Below, one piece after another: positions 5,099-44,858 of a stretch of 64,000 nt of DNA. The stretch spans positions 8,002 to 72,001 of the forward strand of contig LCBT01000004.1 in assembly GCA_000997385.1 (NCBI GenBank). Direction: 5' to 3'. Below the pieces are notes generated by a model. The model made no database searches. It was not told the DNA's origin and saw only the letters and a program-made list of their open reading frames with translations. A program made the position numbers and the translations under genes. Position 1 is the stretch's first letter, and every line of letters starts with the position of its first letter. The stretch is from Candidatus Daviesbacteria bacterium GW2011_GWA1_41_61 (GTDB taxonomy: Bacteria > Patescibacteriota > Microgenomatia > Daviesbacterales > UBA10151).

Positions 5099-6799
5099 AT
5101 GAATAAAAAATTTAGACCTCATTATGACAATAGAGCTGGAGTACTTACCCCTTTAAAGGTTATCCCTTTAGGTGGTGTGGGTGATGTGAGTAAAAATATG
5201 TATGTTTATGAGTATGGCCAGGATATTGTCATTGTTGACTGTGGGATTGGCTTTCCCGATGAAGCTATGCCTGGCATTGATTTGGTCATCCCGGACATCT
5301 CTTATTTGAAAGACAAAAAACACAAAATCCGGGGATTGGTTATTACTCATGCTCATGATGACCATATTGGCGGTATCCCCTATCTTTGGAAGGAGTTAGG
5401 TTTTCCTCCTATCTATGCTCAAAGATTGGCAGCCGCTTTTATTAAAAATAAACTGCATGAGTTTAACTTAAGCCAAAAGGGTCTTAACACCGTTAGTATT
5501 GATAGCCGTTTTAATCTGGGCCATTTTAATATCAGCTTTTATCAAGTTTCTCACTCAGTACCTGATTCAACAGGCATTGTTTTGGAAACTCCGGCTGGCA
5601 GGGTTATCCACCAGGCTGATTTTAAAGTCGATTGGACACCGATGAGTGGCCAGGTGATTGATGTGGGGAAGATTGCCCTGATGGGGGATAAAGGAGTAGC
5701 ATTGATGTTAATTGATGCTTTGAGGGTGGAAAAGCCTGGCTACACTTTATCAGAAAAAACGATTCAGCCAACTTTTGCCCGGATTGAGGCTGAAACTAAG
5801 GGTAAGGTGTTGATCACCACTGTATCTTCCAATATCGGACGGATCCAGCAGGCTATCAATGTGGCTGTAGATGCTGGAAGAAAAATTGCTTTTCTGGGTA
5901 GATCAATGGAGAGCAACTTCCAAATTGCTTGGGATTTAGGTTATCTCCAAGTTCCCTCGGGGATTGTGATTGCCCCGGAGGAGATTAAGAGGTTCCCCGA
6001 AAAGAAGTTGATGTTGATTGTGGCCGGTTCTCAAGGTCAACCCGGCTCATCTTTGTCCCGTATTGCCAATAACGATCACAAGTTTGCTTTTGTCACCCCC
6101 CGTGACAGTGTGGTTTTTTCTGCTGATCCCATTCCTTCCCGTGAAGCAGCCCAGCATGCTTTAATTGATAGGCTGACTAAATTGGGAGCCAATGTTTACT
6201 ACACCGAGATTACGGATGATCTTCATGTTTCAGGTCATGCCAGCGCTGAGGAGATAAAGATGATGATCAATCTAGCCAAACCGAAGTATCTGCTACCCAT
6301 TGGGGCTACTTTCAGACAGATGAAGGCTTTTTCTAAAATGGTCCAGCAGTTGGGGTATGAAGAAGAGAAGATTTTATTAGTCGAAGATGGCAAGGTAGTC
6401 ACCCTTAGCCAGGACAATGTTAAAGCAGATGGATTTGTGGAGGCTAAAAATGTTTATGTTGATGGACTGGGGGTGGGGGATATTGGTAGTGTGGTGTTGC
6501 GGGATAGGATGGTTATGGCCGAGGAGGGAATTGTTTTAGTCATTGTCCCGGTTGATGTCCGTACCAGCAAATTAACCGGAGAACCGGATATTGTCAGCCG
6601 GGGGTTTGTTTTTGAGAAACAATCGGAGGAGCTGTTAGATAAAGCTAAAAATATTGTTAAAGCAGCTTTAGCAGATCATCCTGATGCTGCTTTAGATTGG
6701 CGGTTTATCCGCCGCCATATTGAGGACAGTTTAGAGAAATTTTTCTATGAGGAGACCAAGAGAAGCCCGTTAATTTTGCCAGTAGTGATAGAAGTATAA
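5099..6799 (+). CDS. rnj: ribonuclease J (metallo-beta-lactamase/beta-CASP)
   Basis: HAHDDHIGG motif, about 560 aa RNase J architecture with C-terminal domain. Confidence 0.9.
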   Translation: MNKKFRPHYDNRAGVLTPLKVIPLGGVGDVSKNMYVYEYGQDIVIVDCGIGFPDEAMPGIDLVIPDISYLKDKKHKIRGLVITHAHDDHIGGIPYLWKELGFPPIYAQRLAAAFIKNKLHEFNLSQKGLNTVSIDSRFNLGHFNISFYQVSHSVPDSTGIVLETPAGRVIHQADFKVDWTPMSGQVIDVGKIALMGDKGVALMLIDALRVEKPGYTLSEKTIQPTFARIEAETKGKVLITTVSSNIGRIQQAINVAVDAGRKIAFLGRSMESNFQIAWDLGYLQVPSGIVIAPEEIKRFPEKKLMLIVAGSQGQPGSSLSRIANNDHKFAFVTPRDSVVFSADPIPSREAAQHALIDRLTKLGANVYYTEITDDLHVSGHASAEEIKMMINLAKPKYLLPIGATFRQMKAFSKMVQQLGYEEEKILLVEDGKVVTLSQDNVKADGFVEAKNVYVDGLGVGDIGSVVLRDRMVMAEEGIVLVIVPVDVRTSKLTGEPDIVSRGFVFEKQSEELLDKAKNIVKAALADHPDAALDWRFIRRHIEDSLEKFFYEETKRSPLILPVVIEV

Positions 6800-11254: not shown

Positions 11255-13151
11255 CATAAATTCTTCTTACTCCTGATCCAGCTGATTCTTCTTTGGTAAT
11301 ATTAAGGTGTCCTAACTGTGAGGTGTTTTTAACATGGGGTCCACCACAGATCTCTATTGAAAATGGAAATCCTTCGACTCGCTCCGCTCGCTCAGGATGA
11401 CTGTTTCCACCGATGGTGTAAACAGTCACTTTATCCCCATATTTGGCTCCAAACAACCCTAAAGCGCCTAATTTTAAAGCCTCTTTTTTATCCATCACCT
11501 CAGAGGTAACTGTTAAGTTTTCCTGAATTTTTTGATTAACCAAATTTTCCACTTGTTTACTCTGTTCCTCAGTTAATTTTTCCGGATGAGAAAAATCAAA
11601 CCTTAATCTTTCCGAAGTTATATTACTGCCCTTTTGAGTAACATGTTCTCCTAAAATCTGTCTTAAAGCAGCGTGAAGCAGGTGAGTAGCAGTGTGGTAT
11701 TTAATAGCTACTTCGGATTGATCCACCAAACCTCCCTTAAACATTCCCGTCGAAGCAGTCCTGGACAACTCCTTATGCTTTTCAAACTCAACCTGAAATT
11801 CTTCTTGATCAATTTTTTGCCCTTTTTCAGCCAGAAGTTCTTCAGTGACTTCTATTGGAAATCCATATGTTTGATATAAATCAAAAGCATTTTTGCCGTT
11901 AACTTCGCTTAGTTTTTCAATCTCTTTAAAACCTTTGACCAAAGACGAACCGAATTTTTTCATTTCTTCAACGATCGTTTGGTGTAACTGTTCTTTAGTC
12001 TGCAAACTGTTTTTATTAATAGAAAATAACCAATCATACATTTCTAGAATTCTGTCACATATGGTGGTAATTTCTTCTACAAACTTCAGATCTCCAGTTA
12101 GTTGATAAAATTTAATGGCTGATCTTCTAAGTAATCTTCTTAAGATATATCCTTGTAGTTTATTAGAGGGAAAAACCCCATTAATAATGAGAAATGTAGC
12201 ACCTTTTAAATGGTCAGTAATAATTTGCATAGAAGATCTATTATCGGTATATTTTTTGTTTGTTACTTTTTCAATTTCTTCTATAATTGACCAGAAAAGA
12301 TCAATTTTAAATACATCAGCATCTTTATTTGAGACAGCAACAAGTCTTTCTAATCCGCCTCCAAAATCAACATTTTTATTGGGTAACTTTTTTAAAGAGC
12401 CATCAGCTATTTTTTTGTACTCCATAAAAACAGAATTTCCTATTTCTAGAAAATGTCCACAGTCACAGTTGGGATGGCAATATTTTCCATATTTAGGATC
12501 ATGCTTTATTTCTTCAAATTCATAAAACATCTCTGAGTTGGGACCTCCTGGTTCTCCAGTAGGCATGGCCTCAATACTTCCAGTTCTACTCCACCAGTTT
12601 TTCTTTTGGTCATAATAAAAAATTCTCCCTCCCTGCATCCCTACCTCTGCAGCATACTCTAAAGAATCTAAGGCTACTTCTTTAGCTCCAACATTTTGTT
12701 GAGAAAATAACTCCTTCCAGATTTGGACAGATTCGGTATCTTTGGGAAGATGATATTTTTCATCTCCAGCAAAAACAGATACATAAAGTTTATTTGGATC
12801 AATACTAACCTCCTTTATCAGAAATTCAAAAATCCAAGGGAGCTGTTCCTTTTTAAAGTAATCTCCTAAAGACCAGTTCCCCAGCATTTCAAAGAGGGTG
12901 GTATGGCGGTTATTTCCAACATCTTCAATATCTTGGGCTCTAAAACATGGTTGAGAATTAACTAATCTGGTTCCTTCAGGGTGTTTCTGCCCTAAAAGAT
13001 AAGGAACCATTGGTTGCATCCCTGAGGAAGTAAAAAGAGTAGTGGGATCGTTTTCTGGTACTAGGGGAGCAGAGGGGATAACTTTGTGCCCCTTTTTAAT
13101 AAAGAAATCTAAATATTTTTGTCGGAGTTCCCTTGATGTCATATGAACCAA
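11241..13151 (-). CDS. alaS: alanine--tRNA ligase, compact form without C-Ala domain
   Basis: Class II catalytic core (FTSSGMQP, CFRAQDIEDVG), tRNA-recognition (FLIINGVFPSNKLQGYILRRLLRR), editing-site zinc motifs HTATHLLH and CGGPHV; ends at ...GVRRIYATLI, 636 aa. Confidence 0.9.
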   Translation of the reverse strand: MVHMTSRELRQKYLDFFIKKGHKVIPSAPLVPENDPTTLFTSSGMQPMVPYLLGQKHPEGTRLVNSQPCFRAQDIEDVGNNRHTTLFEMLGNWSLGDYFKKEQLPWIFEFLIKEVSIDPNKLYVSVFAGDEKYHLPKDTESVQIWKELFSQQNVGAKEVALDSLEYAAEVGMQGGRIFYYDQKKNWWSRTGSIEAMPTGEPGGPNSEMFYEFEEIKHDPKYGKYCHPNCDCGHFLEIGNSVFMEYKKIADGSLKKLPNKNVDFGGGLERLVAVSNKDADVFKIDLFWSIIEEIEKVTNKKYTDNRSSMQIITDHLKGATFLIINGVFPSNKLQGYILRRLLRRSAIKFYQLTGDLKFVEEITTICDRILEMYDWLFSINKNSLQTKEQLHQTIVEEMKKFGSSLVKGFKEIEKLSEVNGKNAFDLYQTYGFPIEVTEELLAEKGQKIDQEEFQVEFEKHKELSRTASTGMFKGGLVDQSEVAIKYHTATHLLHAALRQILGEHVTQKGSNITSERLRFDFSHPEKLTEEQSKQVENLVNQKIQENLTVTSEVMDKKEALKLGALGLFGAKYGDKVTVYTIGGNSHPERAERVEGFPFSIEICGGPHVKNTSQLGHLNITKEESAGSGVRRIYATLI

Positions 13152-13185
13152 TTATATATCATTTTTCGTTCTTACATTTGTCTGC

Positions 13186-13731
13186 TTGACTTTTACTATG
13201 GGTAGTAGTAAAAACTTCATAATAGTTATGAATGAAGTAGTTTTTATCACCGACCATTGTCATACTGGCCATTTAAAAGCAGCTTCGTACGAACTTAACA
13301 ATCGAAGCCGAGATATTGCTGAACAATGTGTTTATCGGATAGGGCAAGTAGACCCAGTGAAAAGTCCAAAACATATCTCTCTTAATCTAAGACTTGCGGT
13401 AAGCCGGGGAAGTCTTCCTGAAAAAGATAAGGAGAAGTGGCAAGGAGCTGAAAAGGAGTTAGTAAAATTAATGAAGACAGCTCATATAATGAAGTCTCTT
13501 ATTCGAGCCGAGATGAGGTTGGGGGAAATGCTGCAAGAAGTTCCGCAATTTTTATCTTTTCAAGAAGCTTTTTTATATTTTAAGTCTACTAGTTGGCGAT
13601 TGGACTACTTACTTTCTTCTCAAGCTCGGCAGAGACTGGACTCTGCGCGTTTGGTTTCTTATTCTTTCCTAGAGAGCTGGGTTTTAAGAAGGGCAATTTT
13701 TGAGGGAATCTATTTTACACAACCATCTTAG
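13186..13731 (+). CDS. doubtful hypothetical ORF in an 840-bp low-coding region
   Basis: 181-aa ORF with no SD and no family resemblance. Confidence 0.2.
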   Translation: MTFTMGSSKNFIIVMNEVVFITDHCHTGHLKAASYELNNRSRDIAEQCVYRIGQVDPVKSPKHISLNLRLAVSRGSLPEKDKEKWQGAEKELVKLMKTAHIMKSLIRAEMRLGEMLQEVPQFLSFQEAFLYFKSTSWRLDYLLSSQARQRLDSARLVSYSFLESWVLRRAIFEGIYFTQPS

Positions 13732-34454: not shown

Positions 34455-34688
34455 ATGGATAAATTAAGTTTGGAAAAGATTAATATGTGGAAGGGAAAAC
34501 TGCAAAAACTCCAAAAAGAGTACGAGGAGATTATGCAAAAAAGAGGTGAAGCCATGCAGATGGGAGATCTGAGAGAGAATGCTGCTTTCCAATCTTTATC
34601 TGAAGATGCTGATACCTGGCGGGCCAGAATGGAAGAGCTAAAAAATATTATTACCAAACTGGAACATGAAAACCCGGGAGCCAAATAA
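34455..34688 (+). CDS. Gre-factor N-terminal coiled-coil domain-only protein (77 aa)
   Basis: [30 protein letters not shown] aligns to GreA [30 protein letters not shown] incl. acidic tip D..E; no C-terminal FKBP-like domain; strong SD; TAATG overlap with fusA. Confidence 0.7.
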
Positions 34689-36829
34689 TGGCTGTAGCAA
34701 CTCAAACCAAAAGGGATTTTCCCTTAGATAGAATTAGAAATATCGGCATCATCGCCCATATTGATGCTGGAAAAACTACCACCACCGAAAGAATCCTTTT
34801 TTATACCGGTAGAACTTATAAAATCGGCGATATTGATGAGGGTACTACCACTACTGACTGGATGGAGCAGGAAAAAGAGAGGGGAATCACCATTGTTTCC
34901 GCTGCCATTACTACTTTTTGGATCCCTAAATCTGGGCCTTTTGAGGGTCAGGAAACCAGAATTAATATTATCGATACTCCGGGGCACGTTGACTTTACTG
35001 CTGAGGTAGAAAGGTCACTGCGGGTTTTAGACGGGGGAGTAATTGTGCTGGATGCAGCTTCCGGTGTTCAATCCCAAACTGAAACTGTCTGGAGACAGGC
35101 TAACAAATATAAAGTCCCTTTAGTGGCTTTTGCCAACAAGATGGATGTGGTGGGGGCAGATTTTTTAGCTACCATCCAATCAGCCAGAGATAGGTTAGGA
35201 GCCAATGCCTTGCCTTATAATCTGCCGATTGGCAGTGAAAATGATTTTAAAGGGGTGGTTGATCTTTTAACTAAAAAAGCCTATATCTGGGAGGGTGATC
35301 AAACTGGAGCCAAGTTTAATGAAGCAGAGATTCCTGCCCGGATGGTTGATCTGGTTGCTACCTGGCGGGATAAGTTGGTGGAAGAGATCTCCGGGACTGA
35401 TGATGTCTTGATGGAAAAGTATTTGAATGGGGAAGAGATCAGTGTTGAGGAGCTTAAAAAATCCTTAAGACAAGCGGTCATTGATAATAAAATTGTCCCA
35501 GTAATGGCTGGGTCATCTCTTAGGAATAAAGGTGTCCAGCCGATGCTGGATGCAGCAGTAGAGTTTTTGCCTTCCCCTCAGGATGTTTCGGAAGTGGTAG
35601 GAGAAAATCCCCGTTCCGGTGAACAAGAGATTAGAAAAGCTGACCCTAAATCCCCTTTGTCAGCCTTAGCTTTTAAGATTCAAGTTGATCCCCATGTGGG
35701 GAAGCTAACTTATCTGCGGGTTTATTCGGGGACTATTCAATCTGGTTCTTATCTTTATAACTCCTCCAAAGGCATTAAAGAAAGAGTCGGTCGCTTAATG
35801 TTGATGCATGCCAATGACCGGGAGGAGATTGAGGAAGCTTACGCCGGAGAGATTGTGGCAGCAGTGGGCTTAAAAGAGACTATTACCGGCAACACTTTAT
35901 GTGATGAAAACGCCCCGATTGTTTTAGAGTCCATTACTTTTCCTGATCCGGTGATCTCTTTAGCTATTGAACCTAAAACCAAATCTGACCAGGAAAAATT
36001 AGGCACGGCACTATCAAGGTTATCAGAAGAAGATCCTACCTTCAGAGTCAAAGTCGACCAGGAAACCGGCCAGACCATTATTGCCGGAATGGGAGAGTTA
36101 CAGCTGGAGGTGCTAGTAGATAGGATGAGGCGGGAGTTTAAAGTGGAGGCTAATGTCGGCCAACCTCAAGTAGCTTATAAAGAGACTATCACTCAAACTG
36201 CCAGCGGTGAGGGTAAATACATCCGTCAAACTGGAGGACGGGGTCAATACGGGCATTGTTTTCTAAGAATTGAACCTCTTCCCCGGGGGCAAGGCCGGGA
36301 GTTTGCCTCAGCGATTGTTGGCGGAGCCATACCTCGGGAGTTTATCCCAGCTATTGAAAAGGGGGTTTTAGAAAAAGAAGATACCGGTATTTTGGCAGGT
36401 TATCCTGTCACCGATATTAAGGTGGCAGTTTATGATGGATCTTTCCATGATGTGGATTCTTCAGAGATGGCTTTTAAGATTGCCGGTTCCCTAGGGCTTT
36501 CTGAAGCTGCCAAAAAGGCTGAAATGGTGTTACTTGAGCCTATCATGAAGGTGGAGGTCACCACTCCGGAGGAGTTTTTGGGAGACATGATTGCTGATTT
36601 ATCTTCTAAAAGGGCGCAGATTCAATCTACGGAGATGAGAGGTAATGCCAGGGTAGTACTAGCTTTAGTTCCCTTAGCTGAGATGGGTGGTTATGCTACT
36701 ACTATCAGAAGTATGTCTCAAGGAAGAGCTACTTACTATATGGAAGCAGATCACTATGAGGAAGTTCCCAAAAATATTACCCAAAAGATCGTTGAATCCT
36801 CCGGCTTCACCGGCAGGGTAGAACACTAA
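34688..36829 (+). CDS. fusA: elongation factor G
   Basis: 713 aa, G-domain motifs [21 protein letters not shown]. Confidence 0.97.
36800..36829. repeat. direct repeat copy A (3' end of fusA, tccggcttcaccggcagggtagaacactaa)
   Basis: 29/30 identical to 39097-39126. Confidence 0.85.
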
Positions 36830-36834
36830 AAAAG

Positions 36835-39042
36835 TTACTTTTTCTCTTTAAGCTTAACTCCTGCAATAATCATAGCCTCAATGAAAGATTGTCTACCTTC
36901 TGCAGTAACAACGTCTATAATCTTAGATATATTCTTTCTTTTTTCAAAATATTCGGGGTGTTCTTGCTCTAACCTAGCCTTTACCTGCAAGGCTATTGAA
37001 GATAGTCGAGATTCCCTACCCGTAAAAATTAGATGTAGGATGGACTGCGTTAGTGGCAAATCTGCTTCACGAACTTGCTGAATAGTAGTGTCTTTTAGTT
37101 TTTCCCCTGCAGCTACCATTGCGTTAATAAATATTTGTCTACCTTCAAAGGTGACTGCGTCTACTATAAAAGACCCGTTCATTCTTTTTTTAAAATATTC
37201 AGGGTACTCGCTCTCTAATCTCTCTTTTACCTCTTTAACTCTTAGTGATAACCTTGTTCCATCACCTATAAAAACCAATTTTACACTCTCCCATGTTAAA
37301 GCCATATCTGTATCCTTAAGTTCCTGGATATCTTTGTCTTGCAGCGCTATACCCGCGGCTAACATTTCTTCAATAAAAGCTTGTTTGCCTTCAAGGGTAA
37401 CGATTGAGATCACATTCGGCCCACTCCTTCTTTTAGAAAAATATTCTGGATGCTCAGTTTCCATTCTTGTTTTTACTTGTAGGGCCAGAGGAGATAACTT
37501 CTCAAACCCGCCCCTAAAGACCTCTGTCAAACCAGCATGCGATAGTGGGATTTCTCCAGCTATAACATCTATTAGTAACCCCTTCCCAAGATCTGAAATA
37601 TCTACCGAGTCGCCTTTCCTTCTTATGTTTTGCACTACATCAAGTTCAGTTAATCCTGCAATGTCCTGCTCGGGCCCAAGGTATAATAGACCACTCGGTA
37701 GTTGTCTAACACTTCCTTTCATCCACATACCCATGTTATATGACCAGCCATATTGATTGGTTTGGTAGAGGAAGTCTAGATTAAGACCAAATAATTTACC
37801 TTCAAAGCGGCGAGCTAGTCTTCCAACGTATTGGGTATAACGTAGGTCGGAATCGGTAGGAGAAGCCCAAACTAAAACTTCAGTAAATGGAGCATCAAAT
37901 CCTTCTGATGCAACATAGGGAGATATTAAAACCTGAATGGAACGAGGGTCGCTTTGTGCAAGTTTATATCTTTCAATAGTGTCGAGAGCTGGAATTTCCT
38001 CATTATGAATTTGTCTTGCAGCTTGCTGGTTGACAGCAACACCTACCTTAATACCTTTAGCATTTAGAAGTTGTGCCAATTCTTGAGCCTCCCAGACAAA
38101 GTTTACAGCCACAACAGTTTTGTATTCTTTTTCACCATCTCTGATGATATTTGCAACCTTATCTGCAATAAATGGCCTCAGTTCTGGACTTTTCTTTAAA
38201 ATTTGCTCGAGCTTTCGATAATCAATCTGTCCATTTAGTTTAGTGGGGATCTCTTCTACTAGACCTGTTGTATTAATTTGCATTCCCAAAAGAGGAGGAA
38301 GTAATCTTGACTCTTGTGCTTCGGGCAAAGGGAAATTATAAGCAACCTCAAAACCATATTGTTCTGGCCTCTTCATTTGACCACTGTGTCTGTGGGGAGT
38401 AGCAGTGAACCCTATTACATTTGGGAATTGACAAACTGCGGAAGCTCGTTGAGCGGTTCCGATATTGTGAACCTCGTCAACAATCACTAAATCAAATTCT
38501 GCTGGATCAAGCTGACCTCTTTTGTAGGCTGATTGAATAGTTTGGATTGTTGCCACTCTCACATCGACGTCTTTATCCTTAAATCTTCCTACCCGATAAA
38601 ATGGAAGATCCTCTTGTTCGATTTCAAGAACTTCCTCGACGTCCTCTGTTTCTGTGGTATCTCTTTCTAACTCCTCTGACTCAGTATAGTCAACATAGTC
38701 AACACCACCATTAGATTCTTCTTGATACCTTATTAAAGCAGCATGCGCTTGTTGCACTAAAGTCAACTTTGTTCCGGCGATAAAAAGTACTCTTGCTCCA
38801 GGGTTTCTGCTTCTCCATCTTTCAATAACTTCATGCTCAACCCTTGTTTTACCGATACCTGTTGCCATAGCAGCGATAGGAAAATGGCTGCCTACTTCTC
38901 TTCTCTCAAGATGATCTAAAACTGTCTGAGCTGCCTCATACTGTTTTTGGTCTAACAGGGTTTGTAAATCTGGGGTCAGAAGACCATCTCCACCAACCTC
39001 ACCTGTCAAGCCACGAATTTTTTGCTCACCACTTCTTTCCAT
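36835..39042 (-). CDS. SF2 DEVH-box helicase (ResIII/COG1061-like) with three C-terminal about 80-aa tandem repeats
   Basis: Motif I ATGIGKT, motif II VIVDEVHN, motif III GFTATP, motif VI QYVGRLARR; C-terminal triple repeat (L.VK.RLE.EHPEYF.KR......D.VT.EG.Q.FI.AM..AG.KL); six-frame track ORF runs to 39123 through repeat copy B, start probably ATG 39042 preceded by tgatataat. Confidence 0.75.
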   Translation of the reverse strand: MERSGEQKIRGLTGEVGGDGLLTPDLQTLLDQKQYEAAQTVLDHLERREVGSHFPIAAMATGIGKTRVEHEVIERWRSRNPGARVLFIAGTKLTLVQQAHAALIRYQEESNGGVDYVDYTESEELERDTTETEDVEEVLEIEQEDLPFYRVGRFKDKDVDVRVATIQTIQSAYKRGQLDPAEFDLVIVDEVHNIGTAQRASAVCQFPNVIGFTATPHRHSGQMKRPEQYGFEVAYNFPLPEAQESRLLPPLLGMQINTTGLVEEIPTKLNGQIDYRKLEQILKKSPELRPFIADKVANIIRDGEKEYKTVVAVNFVWEAQELAQLLNAKGIKVGVAVNQQAARQIHNEEIPALDTIERYKLAQSDPRSIQVLISPYVASEGFDAPFTEVLVWASPTDSDLRYTQYVGRLARRFEGKLFGLNLDFLYQTNQYGWSYNMGMWMKGSVRQLPSGLLYLGPEQDIAGLTELDVVQNIRRKGDSVDISDLGKGLLIDVIAGEIPLSHAGLTEVFRGGFEKLSPLALQVKTRMETEHPEYFSKRRSGPNVISIVTLEGKQAFIEEMLAAGIALQDKDIQELKDTDMALTWESVKLVFIGDGTRLSLRVKEVKERLESEYPEYFKKRMNGSFIVDAVTFEGRQIFINAMVAAGEKLKDTTIQQVREADLPLTQSILHLIFTGRESRLSSIALQVKARLEQEHPEYFEKRKNISKIIDVVTAEGRQSFIEAMIIAGVKLKEKK
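36838..37497 (-). repeat. three tandem about 240-bp coding repeats (helicase C-terminal modules)
   Basis: Protein-level repeats of 84, 82 and 54 aa with shared EHPEYF.KR / EG.Q.FI.AM motifs. Confidence 0.5.
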
Positions 39043-39096
39043 GAGGCTAATTATATCAGAAGGTATTAGAGCATACAAATTATAGGATATCTGACT

Positions 39097-39126
39097 TCCG
39101 GCTTCACCGGCAGAGTAGAACACTAA
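39097..39126. repeat. direct repeat copy B (tccggcttcaccggcagagtagaacactaa)
   Basis: Duplicates last 9 codons + stop of fusA with 1 mismatch, 2297 bp downstream of copy A. Confidence 0.85.
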
Positions 39127-39132
39127 TATTGG

Positions 39133-39161
39133 TGTTGACTAAACGTACGGAATAACGTACA
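39133..39161 (+). promoter_or_regulatory. sigma70-like promoter TTGACT-17-TACAAT with CGTACG dyad, 8 nt before the Phd/YefM-like ATG
   Basis: ttgact aaacgtacggaataacg tacaat; acgtac repeated twice (possible autoregulatory operator). Confidence 0.5.
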
Positions 39162-39169
39162 ATACCCTC

Positions 39170-39367
39170 ATGACTACAGTTTCTGCCACAACTGCCAGAG
39201 AAAAATTATATGATCTCATTGAAGAGGTGAATAGGTCTGGGAAAATGATTGGTATTACTAACAGGGGGGTGTTAAAAGCTGTATTGATTAGTCAAAAGGA
39301 ATACGAGTTCATGGTGAATATTGTTTTTAAGATATCAAAAAGAGAGTTAAAAAATGTAAGATTTTAG
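39170..39367 (+). CDS. Phd/YefM-family antitoxin-like protein
   Basis: TTAREKLYDLIEEVNRSGKMIGITNRGVLKAVLISQKEYEFM matches Phd/YefM N-terminal fold consensus. Confidence 0.65.
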   Translation: MTTVSATTAREKLYDLIEEVNRSGKMIGITNRGVLKAVLISQKEYEFMVNIVFKISKRELKNVRF

Positions 39368-39368
39368 A

Positions 39369-39920
39369 GTGGCTCAATCTAATTTCTGGACCATTGCTGA
39401 CAATTTACCACCAAGACCTGATTGTTTAGTAGTTATATCCTACTCTGTTAAAGATAAAAGTGAACCTACAAGACAAACCAAAGCTTTAATAAAAGAAGCT
39501 TTTGGATGGTGGAAAAAATTTCCCCAAGCTAAAATTATTATGTCTACTGGAGATAATCAGGGACTAGGATTGCCTAATTCTAAAGTCATGGCAGACTATG
39601 GTGTTAGTCTAGGTCTTCCCAGGAAAAATATTATTGAGGAGGAGAAATCTCAAGATACTTATGAGAACCTACTTTATTCCAGGAAGATTATTCAAAAAGA
39701 GGGGTTTAAACAACCTACCTTAGTAGTTTTAGATCTTCATAGTAGAAGAGCTCTAGCCCTAGCCAGAAAGTTGAGCTGGAAAAATTTCTACTGGATAACT
39801 GTTTTTAGTCAAGGTGAATCAGGATATGGGAAAAAAGCTCTCCAGACTTCCTCCCGCCCTGTGATCTTAATCTATGAGATGCTAGCTTATGTTTATAATA
39901 TGCTAAAAGGAGAGTTATAG
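39369..39920 (+). CDS. DUF218/YdcF (SanA/ElyC)-like domain protein
   Basis: DCLVVIS...AKIIMSTGD...MADYGVSLGLPRKNIIEEEKSQDTYENLLYSRKII...LVVLDLHSRRA matches DUF218 motifs; GTG start 1 nt after Phd-like stop. Confidence 0.65.
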   Translation: MAQSNFWTIADNLPPRPDCLVVISYSVKDKSEPTRQTKALIKEAFGWWKKFPQAKIIMSTGDNQGLGLPNSKVMADYGVSLGLPRKNIIEEEKSQDTYENLLYSRKIIQKEGFKQPTLVVLDLHSRRALALARKLSWKNFYWITVFSQGESGYGKKALQTSSRPVILIYEMLAYVYNMLKGEL

Positions 39921-39971
39921 TCTTTATAAATCAGATCTTGCTTTTTTGAGAGAAATAGTGTAAAAATAAGA

Positions 39972-40024
39972 TGCAAATTAAGAAACTTAATTTGCAGACC
40001 CGCTTGTGGAAAGTGGGTTTTTAA
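39972..40024 (+). terminator. tandem hairpins: 11-bp perfect stem (tgcaaattaag-aaa-cttaatttgca) then intrinsic terminator (acccgctt-gtgga-aagtgggt + T5)
   Basis: Read directly downstream of the DUF218 gene. Confidence 0.55.
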
Positions 40025-40096
40025 TGGGCTTGAAATGTAGGACTTGATTTTTCAAGTAATCTTGTTTAAACTACTTTATCAAGTAAGAGGTTGTGC

Positions 40097-40153
40097 TGGA
40101 TGATTTGGCAGTACAAACTTTAGAAAAAATAAAGGAAAAGTCCAAATCATCCA
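40097..40153 (+). promoter_or_regulatory. perfect 12-bp inverted repeat (tggatgatttgg / ccaaatcatcca) with 33-nt purine-rich loop ending 7 nt before tuf ATG
   Basis: Read directly; potential 5'UTR hairpin or operator. Confidence 0.4.
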
Positions 40154-40159
40154 AAATAT

Positions 40160-41344
40160 ATGGCAGAGGCAAAAAAATTTGAAAGAACCAAACCGCACGT
40201 GAACATTGGTACCATGGGTCATGTTGACCATGGTAAGACCACTTTAACGGCGGCTATCATGACAGTGTTGGCCGGTAAGGGAATGGCCCAGAAGTCTTCT
40301 GTTGATGATATTGATAACGCTCCTGAAGAGAAGGCCCGCGGTATTACTATTAATATTTCCCACCGCGAATATGAGACCGAAAAGAGACATTATGCTCACA
40401 TTGACATGCCGGGTCATGCTGATTACATCAAAAACATGATTACCGGCGCTGCTCAAACGGATGGAGCTATTTTGGTAGTTTCGGCTCCCGATGGCCCAAT
40501 GCCCCAAACTCGAGAGCATTTACTCTTAGCCAGACAGGTAGGGGTTCCAGCAATTGTAGTTTACCTAAACAAAACTGACCAGGTTTCTGATCCCGAACTT
40601 TTGGAACTGGTGGAAGAAGAGATCCGCGATCTTTTGGCCAAATACCAATTCGATAAAAACTCCCCCATTATTAAAGGTTCAGCTTTGAAGGCCTTAGAAG
40701 GTGACACGGAAGCTGTTAAATCTATTGAAGAGCTGATGAAAGCTGTTGATGAGTGGATCCCTACTCCTACCCGGGATGTTGATAAACCATTCCTGATGGC
40801 TGTAGAAGATGTTTTCTCTATCAAGGGAAGAGGAACTGTTGTTACAGGGAGGATTGAAAGAGGTAAAGTTAAGATTAACGAGGAAATTGAAATTGTAGGA
40901 ATCAGACCAACGAAGAAAAGCGTTGTGACTGGAGTAGAAATGTTTCATAAAATGCTGGATGAAGGTCAAGCTGGAGATAATGCCGGGATACTTCTTCGGG
41001 GTATTGAAAAAGATGATGTGGAGCGTGGTCAGGTTTTAGCTAAACCGGGCTCAATCACACCCCACTCTGAATTTGAAGCTGAAGTTTATGTCCTTTCTAA
41101 GGAAGAGGGTGGAAGACATACCCCGTTCTTTAAAGGCTACAGACCGCAATTCTATATTAGAACTACTGATGTGACCGGTGAGGTTATCTTACCGGAAGGT
41201 CTGGAGATGGTTATGCCGGGTGATACTACTAAGATGAATGTTAAGTTAATTACTCCGGTAGCTATGGAGGAGGGGTTAAGATTTGCTGTCCGGGAGGGTG
41301 GTAAGACCGTTGGAGCTGGAGTCATTACTAAGATTCTTAAATAA
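40160..41344 (+). CDS. tuf: elongation factor Tu
   Basis: 394 aa, [22 protein letters not shown]. Confidence 0.97.
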
Positions 41345-43595: not shown

Positions 43596-44008
43596 TGGAG
43601 ATCGTTTTAAGAAAACCAGTAGTGACGGAAAAATCAATGAAGTTGGCTGCTTTGGGCTGGTACACCTTTGTGGTAAATAAAAAAGCCCGTAAGCCAGTTA
43701 TTGCCAGGGCTGTAGAAGAATCCTTCGGGGTCAATGTAGCGGAGATAAAAACTACCACCTTTAAACCTGAAACAAAGATGCAAAGATCCAAACGCCATCC
43801 TTATCAGGTTCCAGGATATAAAAAAGCTGTGGTTAAGCTTAAAGAAGGACAAAAAATTGCTTTGTTTGAAACAGAAACCGGAGATAAAGAGGAAAAATCT
43901 ACTCCAGAAGTTAAAGAGAAGAAAAGCTTACTTAAAGGAACAAAAGTGAAGATAGAAAGAGGCGGAAAAGAGAAGGAGACCGAAGTGGGAGGAGAAAGGA
44001 ATGTCTAA
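43595..44008 (+). CDS. rplW: 50S ribosomal protein L23 with Lys/Glu-rich C-terminal extension
   Basis: L23 core (about 95 aa) + about 40-aa charged tail. Confidence 0.9.
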   Translation: MEIVLRKPVVTEKSMKLAALGWYTFVVNKKARKPVIARAVEESFGVNVAEIKTTTFKPETKMQRSKRHPYQVPGYKKAVVKLKEGQKIALFETETGDKEEKSTPEVKEKKSLLKGTKVKIERGGKEKETEVGGERNV

Positions 44009-44858
44009 AAATATGGCTTTAGCGCAGTATGAGCGAAGCTCTAAACTGGTCGCTTACAAGGAAAAAACTAATACCAGAAGGTTTACCTCAAAGCTTTTAA
44101 GACCTGCTAAAAGCGGTCAGGAAATAAGGGGTTTAAGGGTTATTTTACCCAAAAAGAGCGGTCGTTCAGGCGGTAAAATTACGGTGCGTCATCAAGGAGG
44201 CCGGCACAAAAGACAATACCGTCTGATAGATTTTAAGCGGGGCAAATGGGGAATTGAGGGCACAGTGGCAGCTTTAGAGTATGACCCAAACCGTAATGTC
44301 AATATCGCTTTGGTAAAGTATACTGATGGAGAGTTTCGCTATATTCTGGCTCCCCAGGGGCTGAAAGCAGGGTCTAAGGTCGAAGCTGGAAATAAGGTGG
44401 AGGTTAAGGTTGGTAATGCCATGAAATTAAAGAGTTTGCCGGTGGGAACGGTTGTTCATAATGTTGAACTGACGCCGGGCAAGGGAGGCCAAATTGGCCG
44501 CAGCGCTGGTACTTCTTTAACTTTGCAAGCTAAACAGGCACCCTTTGCACACTTGAAAATGCCTTCAGGTGAGATTAGAATGGTTCCTTTAGAATCTGTG
44601 GCAACTGTTGGGGTATTAGGAAATGAGGAATGGAAGCATCTTAAGTTTGGAAAAGCGGGAAGAGTAAGGCATATGGGTATCCGCCCGACAGTCCGGGGAA
44701 CTGCCCAAGACCCGCGTTCTCATCCTCATGGAGGTGGTGAAGCTCGCTCTGGAGTGGGAAGAAAGAAACCAATGACCAAATATGGCCGGCCAGCAGTAGG
44801 GAAGACCAGGCAGAAAGGAAAACTGAGTAATAGATTCATAATAAAGAGACGCCGTTAA
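44001..44858 (+). CDS. rplB: 50S ribosomal protein L2
   Basis: 285 aa, conserved L2. Confidence 0.95.
   Translation: MSKNMALAQYERSSKLVAYKEKTNTRRFTSKLLRPAKSGQEIRGLRVILPKKSGRSGGKITVRHQGGRHKRQYRLIDFKRGKWGIEGTVAALEYDPNRNVNIALVKYTDGEFRYILAPQGLKAGSKVEAGNKVEVKVGNAMKLKSLPVGTVVHNVELTPGKGGQIGRSAGTSLTLQAKQAPFAHLKMPSGEIRMVPLESVATVGVLGNEEWKHLKFGKAGRVRHMGIRPTVRGTAQDPRSHPHGGGEARSGVGRKKPMTKYGRPAVGKTRQKGKLSNRFIIKRRR

Follow-up and report, generated by a model that had tools for sequence, protein, structure and literature searches.

A displaced copy of the fusA 3′ end behind a helicase gene, and recurrent gene-end relics beside gene cassettes, in Candidatus Daviesbacteria

What brings a second copy of the last codons of fusA into the spacer between this gene and tuf, with a helicase gene lying between the two copies? 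The question is raised by a 64-kb window (the whole stretch of DNA analyzed here, on which all coordinates are based unless a locus is named) from Candidatus Daviesbacteria GW2011_GWA1_41_61, an uncultured groundwater bacterium of the candidate phyla radiation (CPR)/Microgenomates. CPR bacteria (Patescibacteria) have tiny genomes and few recognizable mobile elements, and their gene exchange is poorly understood. A first-pass annotation had read the fusA–tuf spacer as a single 3.3-kb island, placed there by site-specific integration into the 3′ end of fusA. We find instead an insertion inside the last 30 nucleotides (nt) of fusA with duplication of that segment, without local mobility genes and with recurrence across the clade. 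As to how it came about, we cautiously favor insertion with long target duplication at the fusA end, followed by spread through the host's homologous recombination, a route that would need no dedicated recombinase.

The target gene, fusA (34688–36829, plus strand; an open reading frame [ORF] of 713 amino acids [aa] whose product matches exactly the protein named EF-G in Ca. Daviesbacteria GW2011_GWA1_41_61), ends in what we call copy A (36800–36829, plus strand; TCCGGCTTCACCGGCAGGGTAGAACACTAA): the final nine codons and stop of the live gene, encoding SGFTGRVEH, a C-terminus kept in ~120 Daviesbacteria EF-G proteins. As the first-pass annotation had reported, this segment recurs at 39097–39126 (plus strand; copy B), where a profile match spans 39094–39126 (nhmmer E = 4e-8). 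Copy B, a displaced non-coding relic of the former fusA 3′ end, differs from copy A by a single G-to-A change (29/30 identical), which turns AGG into AGA, both arginine codons. With up to three mismatches allowed, the 30-mer has two matches in the window against 0.00 expected from 100 shuffles, and the pair is the sole intergenic-type direct repeat of at least 22 nt there. We rejected a location of copy B inside an ORF, given an in-frame TAG at 39067–39069, nine codons upstream. The only gene between the copies is, again as reported, a minus-strand superfamily 2 (SF2) helicase gene whose stop codon lies 5 nt from that of fusA; the insert thus comprises 2.27 kb and one gene. At least 20 contigs in ENA, JGI and Logan (different samples and assemblers; longest 630 kb) encode the exact helicase and EF-G proteins in this layout, so misassembly, which the first-pass annotation had asked to be checked, is excluded.

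Gene-end relics of this kind are common in the clade. We searched for extra copies with a profile of the final 66 nt of fusA; a JGI metagenome scan for DNA encoding SGFTGRVEH-stop yielded 77 Daviesbacteria loci, eight of them with two exact matches in direct orientation, and removal of duplicates left 59 distinct fusA ends. One or two downstream relics accompany 18 of the 46 distinct ends with at least 1 kb of flank, and 14 of the 30 whose flank reaches 2.5 kb or more. The extra copies lie downstream and on the same strand only (best opposite-strand match, E = 2.1), 450–4660 nt behind fusA. Their right boundary is always the stop codon; on the left they vary continuously between –23 and –65 (–65, –61, –59 to –54, –49, –46, –44, –39 and –35 to –28). 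Three loci (cited here by handle: L141, L161 and L140) carry arrays of two relics. At L013 (EF-G 80% identical) a 51-nt fusA pseudo-end stands 4.7 kb downstream of the gene, and at L095 (EF-G 91%) a decayed relic stands 1.1 kb downstream. The fusA end is single-copy at L175/L128, L143 and 28 other loci. The expectation that fusA and tuf are normally adjacent does not hold in this clade, the gap ranging from ~300 nt (L143) to more than 4.7 kb. A direct repeat at L163 (27/27) was rejected as a relic; it is the shared C-terminal domain of two paralogous proteins.

The fusA end is not alone in this behavior, as the rpsJ 3′ end shows the same duplication in two Daviesbacteria. At L146 (4460–4509 and 5552–5601) a 50-nt relic lies 1092 nt downstream, its four differences from the gene end are all synonymous (4/4), and the cargo ends in an abutting DUF2283-type pair. 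At L169 a shorter relic lies 685 nt downstream (5120–5146 and 5805–5831). Separately, a few Daviesbacteria EF-G proteins (P0162–P0281) end differently after SGFTGR (e.g., VATAI, MSTV, VANA, VAST), and a few exceed the usual 712–713 aa, reaching up to 737 aa; these altered ends may mark insertions within the final codons after which the original end was not regenerated.

The usual immediate left-hand neighbor of a relic is a type II toxin–antitoxin (TA) module. Plus-strand Phd–ParE pairs, with the ParE stop abutting the relic, are found at L013, L126, L133, L135/137, L158, L161, L167 and L170, and minus-strand DUF433–DUF5615 (PIN-like) pairs at L098/173, L155, L120, L141, L171 and L140; HicAB stands beside a relic at L141, and the 492-nt cassette at L138/L162 carries nothing but a GIY-YIG gene of 95 aa. 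Among the remaining cargo are gpsA, a histidine kinase gene, a small zinc-ribbon ORF and unknown ORFs. None of the ~25 related cargo regions encodes a recombinase, and the only mobility-type gene seen was an IS200-like Y1_Tnp ORF beyond the L013 relic. ORF inspection and Pfam scans of unassigned ORFs, a search confined to the window and these cargo regions, bore out the earlier statement that the window holds no integrase or transposase. The zinc-ribbon ORF (62–70 aa, CxxC...CxxC; no Pfam match) recurs in fusA–tuf cassettes beside the DUF5615 toxin gene, with loci at L098 (7878–8066), L155 (3122–3310), L171 (480–668), L140 (1636–1824) and L013, where it adjoins the Y1_Tnp gene (12835–13047 and 13087–13731).

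The two copies at a locus carry the marks of separate functional histories. A comparison of 18 unique A/B pairs places 73 of the 95 differences at codon position 3, and the codon changes comprise 65 synonymous and 17 non-synonymous ones, with AGA, AGG, CGC, CGT, CGG and CGA all used for arginine. Copying in situ, with neutral decay of B and synonymous change only in A, would give a synonymous share of ~42% by our own estimate (~8 synonymous sites per 30). The mean distance from a relic to its own fusA end is 5.7/30, against 5.6/30 between the fusA ends of different genomes. From the mostly synonymous divergence and these matching distances we infer that the two copies are normally different functional alleles joined by recombination. 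Young pairs differ at one position (the window), two (L113) or three (L116, L158 and L141-B1 each), and all five of the differences that lie away from the repeat's left boundary are synonymous (5/5).

The cassettes, moreover, do not track the genomes that carry them. Specifically, L126 and L151 share 96% identity in Phd (first 50 aa) and 87% in EF-G, and L135 and L170 share 90 and 85%, respectively; conversely, L170 and L151 are 94% identical in EF-G and only 71% in Phd, and L175 lacks a cassette despite an EF-G 98% identical to that of L126 (C-terminal 300 aa). These conflicts, as judged from protein identities, show the cassettes to be horizontally mobile. An alignment of the occupied L126 site with the empty L175 site found spacers without homology beyond the genes and did not delimit the insertion. 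The junction of ParE stop and relic is alike in these genomes save for small deletions, while the relic bodies differ synonymously, a pattern that fits crossovers inside the relic. Within fusA itself, nucleotide identity between the window and L095 is 0.88–0.89 in the final 350 nt (36480–36829) vs. 0.74–0.85 elsewhere, with no such rise in the other comparators; this suggests, short of proof, a crossover inside fusA.

To the right of copy B the spacer is older and layered. Eight nt past copy B lies the putative promoter/operator of a Phd–ParE-type TA cassette (39135–39163, plus strand; TTGACT, 17 nt, TACAAT, with a CGTACG-GAATAA-CGTACA dyad), the region's best sigma-70-like match (10/12). Its motif is kept upstream of phd at L013, L126, L133, L135, L158, L161, L167, L170 and L151; the Phd–ParE cassettes all share TTGACA-nn-CGTACGGAATAACGTACACT, which in the simplest cases starts 11–12 nt after a fusA-end copy, be it the live fusA stop (L170) or an upstream relic (L167). 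The shared motif 8 nt past copy B implies that copy B was the functional fusA end in front of an old Phd–ParE cassette. What remains of this cassette is a truncated, orphan Phd/YefM-like antitoxin of 65 aa (39170–39367, plus strand; PF02604 E = 1.8e-11, matching residues 1–54 only), in which the N-terminal DNA-binding part is retained and the toxin-binding C-terminus and ParE are gone; full-length relatives have 87–110 aa and are followed by ParE. It does not qualify as a type II Phd/YefM–ParE pair, the antitoxin being short of full length and the next gene encoding DUF218 rather than ParE, while intact pairs occur in relatives. Read from the sequence, then, the window's old cassette is now missing three parts: ParE, the half of Phd that binds the toxin, and a distal relic of its own.

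The DUF218/YdcF gene (183 aa; 39369–39920, plus strand; PF02698 E = 3.4e-17) has an ortholog (80% aa identity) between fusA and tuf at L095, directly behind the decayed relic, and its presence at the same site there dates it to before the Phd–ParE cassette as well. Next comes a terminator-like feature (39972–40022, plus strand) of two tandem hairpins (39972–40018; –23.6 kcal/mol, z = –4.8), of which the latter has a T-run, and tuf (an ORF encoding EF-Tu; 40160–41344, plus strand) forms the right border of this variable spacer. The helicase gene is absent from the fusA–tuf site in the nearest relatives (L095, L175/L128 and L177; EF-G 90–91% identical) and in all other sampled loci, a distribution by which the helicase arrived last and its cassette is young. 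The first-pass annotation had the individual sites right (the promoter with its dyad, the Phd/YefM-like and DUF218 genes and the hairpins before tuf), whereas its single 3.3-kb island resolves into at least three layers: the helicase, which alone lies between the repeats, the older Phd–ParE remnant, and DUF218.

We propose that such loci arise in steps. In a rare first step, a gene or TA module would be joined illegitimately within the last 23–65 nt of a highly conserved gene, with duplication of the segment; so close to where an essential gene ends, an illegitimate insertion would survive only if the end were duplicated. In the window, the helicase would have entered 30 nt before the fusA stop codon, an event that was viable only because fusA was left with an intact, in-frame copy of those 30 nt (copy A); copy B, the former end, would have been displaced 2.3 kb downstream, still abutting the promoter of the older Phd–ParE cassette, which may itself have arrived by the same route and lost its toxin later. 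In a second step, DNA from a relative, with fusA sequence on both flanks, could insert by ordinary homologous recombination after uptake, the left crossover falling in the fusA body and the right one in the relic, so that the distal relic would be replaced by the recipient's former gene end. Lastly, TA modules would become enriched beside relics, as loss of a cassette by recombination between copies A and B would kill the cell. Patescibacteria are reported to possess competence and homologous-recombination genes (PMC12455944).

Several points weigh against this proposal. The report on competence and recombination holds at the level of Patescibacteria and does not come from this genome. Right arms of 30–65 nt, together with ~75–85% fusA nucleotide identity between species, make poor substrates for RecA-type recombination, and a non-specific process does not fully account for the way junctions cluster in the final 65 nt of fusA. 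The window's own event, with copies 29/30 identical, cannot be assigned to either in-situ duplication or import from a very close relative. The helicase cassette has been seen in this species only, and its spread is not demonstrated. Finally, exact-protein look-ups of EF-G and the helicase returned occupied sites only: all 21 contigs encoding the identical EF-G carry the helicase. The comparison with empty sites called for by the first-pass annotation hence has a divided outcome, with helicase-free sites in other species (EF-G 90–91% identical) and none in this one. An empty allele would be expected to join fusA...GGCAGRGTAGAACACTAA directly to TATTGGTGTTGACTAAACG, and an excised circle to join 39096 to 36830 across one repeat copy.

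Alternatively, the fusA 3′ end could have served as attB for a tyrosine or serine recombinase supplied in trans, from another part of the genome or from a helper element, the cassettes then being integrase-less cis-mobilizable elements or integron-like cassettes that accrete in tandem. The repeated use of one short fusA region (18/46 loci), the tandem two-relic arrays and the conserved ParE/relic junction speak for such an enzyme, as do copies A and B from different functional alleles, expected if an attP carries the replacement gene end. Yet no recombinase gene was found in the 64-kb window or in any cargo, to which the search was confined; left boundaries running continuously from –23 to –65 define no single crossover point, the 30-mer has no inverted-repeat core that we could see, the unrelated rpsJ end behaves alike, and no viral contig has a fusA-end copy (two scans of viral contigs for a virus-borne attP, with the exact and a degenerate fusA-end pattern, found nothing). 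We hold this explanation to be unlikely. What stands of the first-pass reading is a recombinational insertion at the fusA 3′ end in which the gene regains its end from one copy while the other is left as a displaced relic; its site-specific character is not favored, given cargo regions (~25) free of recombinases, varying boundaries, the like behavior of rpsJ and the lack of a virus-borne attP-like copy in those scans.

A purely local event would begin with two identical copies produced on the spot, by a staggered break or by a target-site duplication of the transposase kind, after which both were inherited vertically and the relic decayed neutrally. Such an event would account for the 29/30 identity in the window, for the other young pairs (L113, L116 and L158, with two to three differences) and for a helicase cassette known from this species only. 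It sits poorly with 65 of 82 changed codons being synonymous across the 18 pairs (vs. the ~42% of our own estimate), with the wholly synonymous differences of young pairs away from the left boundary (5/5), and with a Phd cassette phylogeny that conflicts with that of EF-G; neither a transposase nor terminal inverted repeats were found, and duplications of 30–65 nt far exceed transposon target-site duplications. We regard it as improbable. Homing, whereby fusA ends without a cassette would be cut by free-standing GIY-YIG nucleases and repaired from a cassette-bearing donor, receiving both its cassette and its fusA end, gains some appeal from GIY-YIG genes (PF01541, E = 3e-18) in the fusA–tuf spacer of four loci, above all L138/L162, where this gene is the only cargo of the 492-nt cassette between fusA-end copies. 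Most cassettes, the window's included, nonetheless lack a nuclease gene, gene conversion alone makes no duplicated target end, and small GIY-YIG proteins have no demonstrated site specificity; homing is accordingly a very improbable account. That the repeat is due to chance or to a chimeric assembly has only the metagenomic source to recommend it and is of negligible probability, with zero matches expected by chance, junctions that are identical across samples and assemblers (at least 20 contigs), and homologous structures in many related species.

Nothing indicates that the helicase mediates its own insertion. The gene (36835–39042, minus strand; 735 aa from ATG; PF04851 ResIII E = 2e-21, confirming the earlier helicase call, and a weak Helicase_C match) encodes a helicase core (ResIII plus helicase C) at residues ~30–430, and only in this core does the protein resemble RadD, Hef and the helicases of type IV restriction endonucleases. 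Its C-terminal third consists of three ~82-aa repeats (36835–37580, minus strand; 246-nt spacing) with the motif ...EHPEYF.KR...V/I..VT.EG.Q.FI..M..AG..L, which match no Pfam family; homologs carry two to five such repeats, hence their lengths of 650–1150 aa. The family is spread across Microgenomates at 40–68% identity, in unrelated chromosomal contexts and without relics. As a candidate self-mobile gene it was rejected, since homologs at L093, L094, L178 and L179 adjoin rpsB, recR/cysS and other genes with neither flanking direct repeats nor fusA relics; no viral relatives of the helicase were found. The 762-aa version called by some gene callers has its GTG start within copy B and is an artefact, in that the repeat stays open when read as its reverse complement.

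Upstream of the helicase ATG by 7 nt is an extended –10-like element, TGATATAAT (39050–39058, minus strand), read from the sequence and of putative promoter function. A TATAAT (often TGnTATAAT) placed 6–7 nt before ATG, with no space for a Shine–Dalgarno sequence, is seen at the helicase gene (39050–39058), at 1576–1590 of the window and at L098, L141 and L179, and this TATAAT-N6/7-ATG layout is common to the minus-strand cassettes of L098 and L141. Its position in minus-strand cassette genes and helicase homologs suggests leaderless transcripts. A 19-nt inverted repeat (17/19 complementary) pairs 38696–38714, inside the helicase gene, with 39123–39141, which spans the end of copy B and the –35 of the Phd promoter; it is probably due to chance.

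TA insertions also occur where no relic can be detected. A minus-strand DUF433–DUF5615 (PIN-like) pair of the same family as in the fusA-relic cassettes elsewhere lies at 990–1575 of the window, between a GntR-family gene and pnp, and no relic of the GntR gene end beside it rose above shuffled controls; the same holds for rpsG-end relics beside the TA insertions of L175 and L095. These three cases imply that duplication is no obligatory by-product of TA insertion. The rpsG–fusA spacer is variable, holding a Gp49/HTH (HigBA-like) pair and an HD-domain gene at L175 (6089–6681), a signal peptidase gene and Phd–ParE at L095 (5782–6286), and only a GreA_N-like ORF in the window. This 77-aa ORF (34455–34688), whose ATGA overlaps the fusA start, matches only the GreA N-terminal coiled-coil domain (PF03449); its presence before fusA at L013, L095, L175 and L177 as well makes it a clade-specific member of the str operon. 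Farther downstream, rplB was called as two ORFs (73 and 197 aa) at L005 (19326–20179; ANAN16 scaffold_148) and as a single 285-aa gene at L004 (19314–20171), in other assemblies and in the window (44001–44858), and the split is probably an assembly frameshift error.

For the CPR, the window locus and ~20 related ones offer a concrete and testable route of gene exchange, in which the copies bear the mark of function in different genomes. It is possible, if speculative, that Ca. Daviesbacteria, and perhaps CPR bacteria generally, practice an integron-like exchange of cassettes without an integrase, with the fusA and rpsJ 3′ ends as attachment sites: the cassettes, typically TA modules, would carry a gene-end relic as a portable homology arm and move between species by uptake and host recombination, replacing the recipient's gene end. 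The loci also extend insertion with long target duplication from restriction–modification (R-M) systems to TA modules and ordinary genes, and, by spanning young and old events, they form a natural series for testing the mechanism of that class, unresolved since 2000. A practical caution follows, in that the fusA, tuf and rpsJ ends serve as phylogenetic markers and syntenic anchors and recombination there can mislead both uses.

How does this locus compare with known systems? We found nothing specific in the literature on fusA–tuf insertions or on TA cassettes at fusA in CPR bacteria. Casposons encode Cas1 and PolB, possess terminal inverted repeats and produce short target-site duplications, none of which is seen at the fusA locus. 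A likeness does exist in the choice of target: the EF-2 gene, the archaeal counterpart of that for EF-G, is reported to be the most common integration target of thaumarchaeal casposons (PMC6563490). Transposons and insertion sequences likewise find no match, there being no transposase, no inverted repeats at the cassette ends and a duplication of 30 nt that varies in length in relatives. Integron cassettes, which are recognized by intI, attI and palindromic attC sites, differ as well, as no integrase was found and the repeated unit is the end of a coding gene without dyad symmetry. Integrase-less elements flanked by att sites, namely cis-mobilizable elements (CIMEs) and islands of the SGI1 type, resemble the fusA cassettes in their insertion at the 3′ end of a conserved gene, a direct repeat that restores the gene, tandem accretion and stabilization by TA modules. 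CIMEs beside ICESt1/3 integrate in fda. The SGI1-type islands are reported to occupy the 3′ ends of trmE, yicC or dusA and to be TA-stabilized (PMC8409611, PMC5006074). Both kinds of island, however, are much larger and require a tyrosine integrase, whose crossover site is fixed, while here the boundaries vary, no crossover position is fixed and no cognate recombinase was found in the window or cargo, the extent of the search. Homology-facilitated illegitimate recombination, in which one end is anchored by homology and the other joined illegitimately without enzymes of the element's own (PMC3240628), shares with our proposal the one homology-anchored end in a conserved gene and the lack of element-encoded enzymes; it is not known to give a recurrent, reusable duplicated gene end.

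The closest match is the R-M class known as "insertion with long target duplication" (Nobusato et al., 2000; Furuta et al., 2010, PMC2853133), in which units without mobility genes are flanked by variable repeats of >30 bp that often include a stop codon, the hosts being mostly competent species (PMC2853133). The fusA cassettes share with this class a gene unit free of mobility genes, direct repeats of variable length that are single-copy in other genomes, a repeat that often spans the stop codon so that the target gene stays intact, and cargo that is often an addiction module. By the published definition (a repeat of >30 bp that matches a single-copy target in insert-free genomes, no mobile-element genes, an insert of <20 kb and an empty site in the same species; PMC2853133), the window's repeat stands at the cut-off with exactly 30 bp (33 by profile; 44–65 nt in relatives), its 2.27-kb insert with one helicase gene lies well within the size limit and, like the ~25 related cargo regions, is free of mobility genes, and no empty site accompanies the 21 of 21 occupied contigs with identical EF-G. 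Differences from the R-M class lie in the cargo (a helicase here; type II TA modules, GIY-YIG and other genes in relatives), in the reuse of the same target, the fusA end and also the rpsJ end, in many species and in arrays, in copies that usually differ synonymously, which implies exchange between genomes, and in a CPR host. On this comparison the fusA-end pattern appears to fit the long-target-duplication class better than site-specific integration, and what is new is the host group, the cargo, the repeated reuse of one essential-gene end (arrays included) and the synonymous divergence of the copies.

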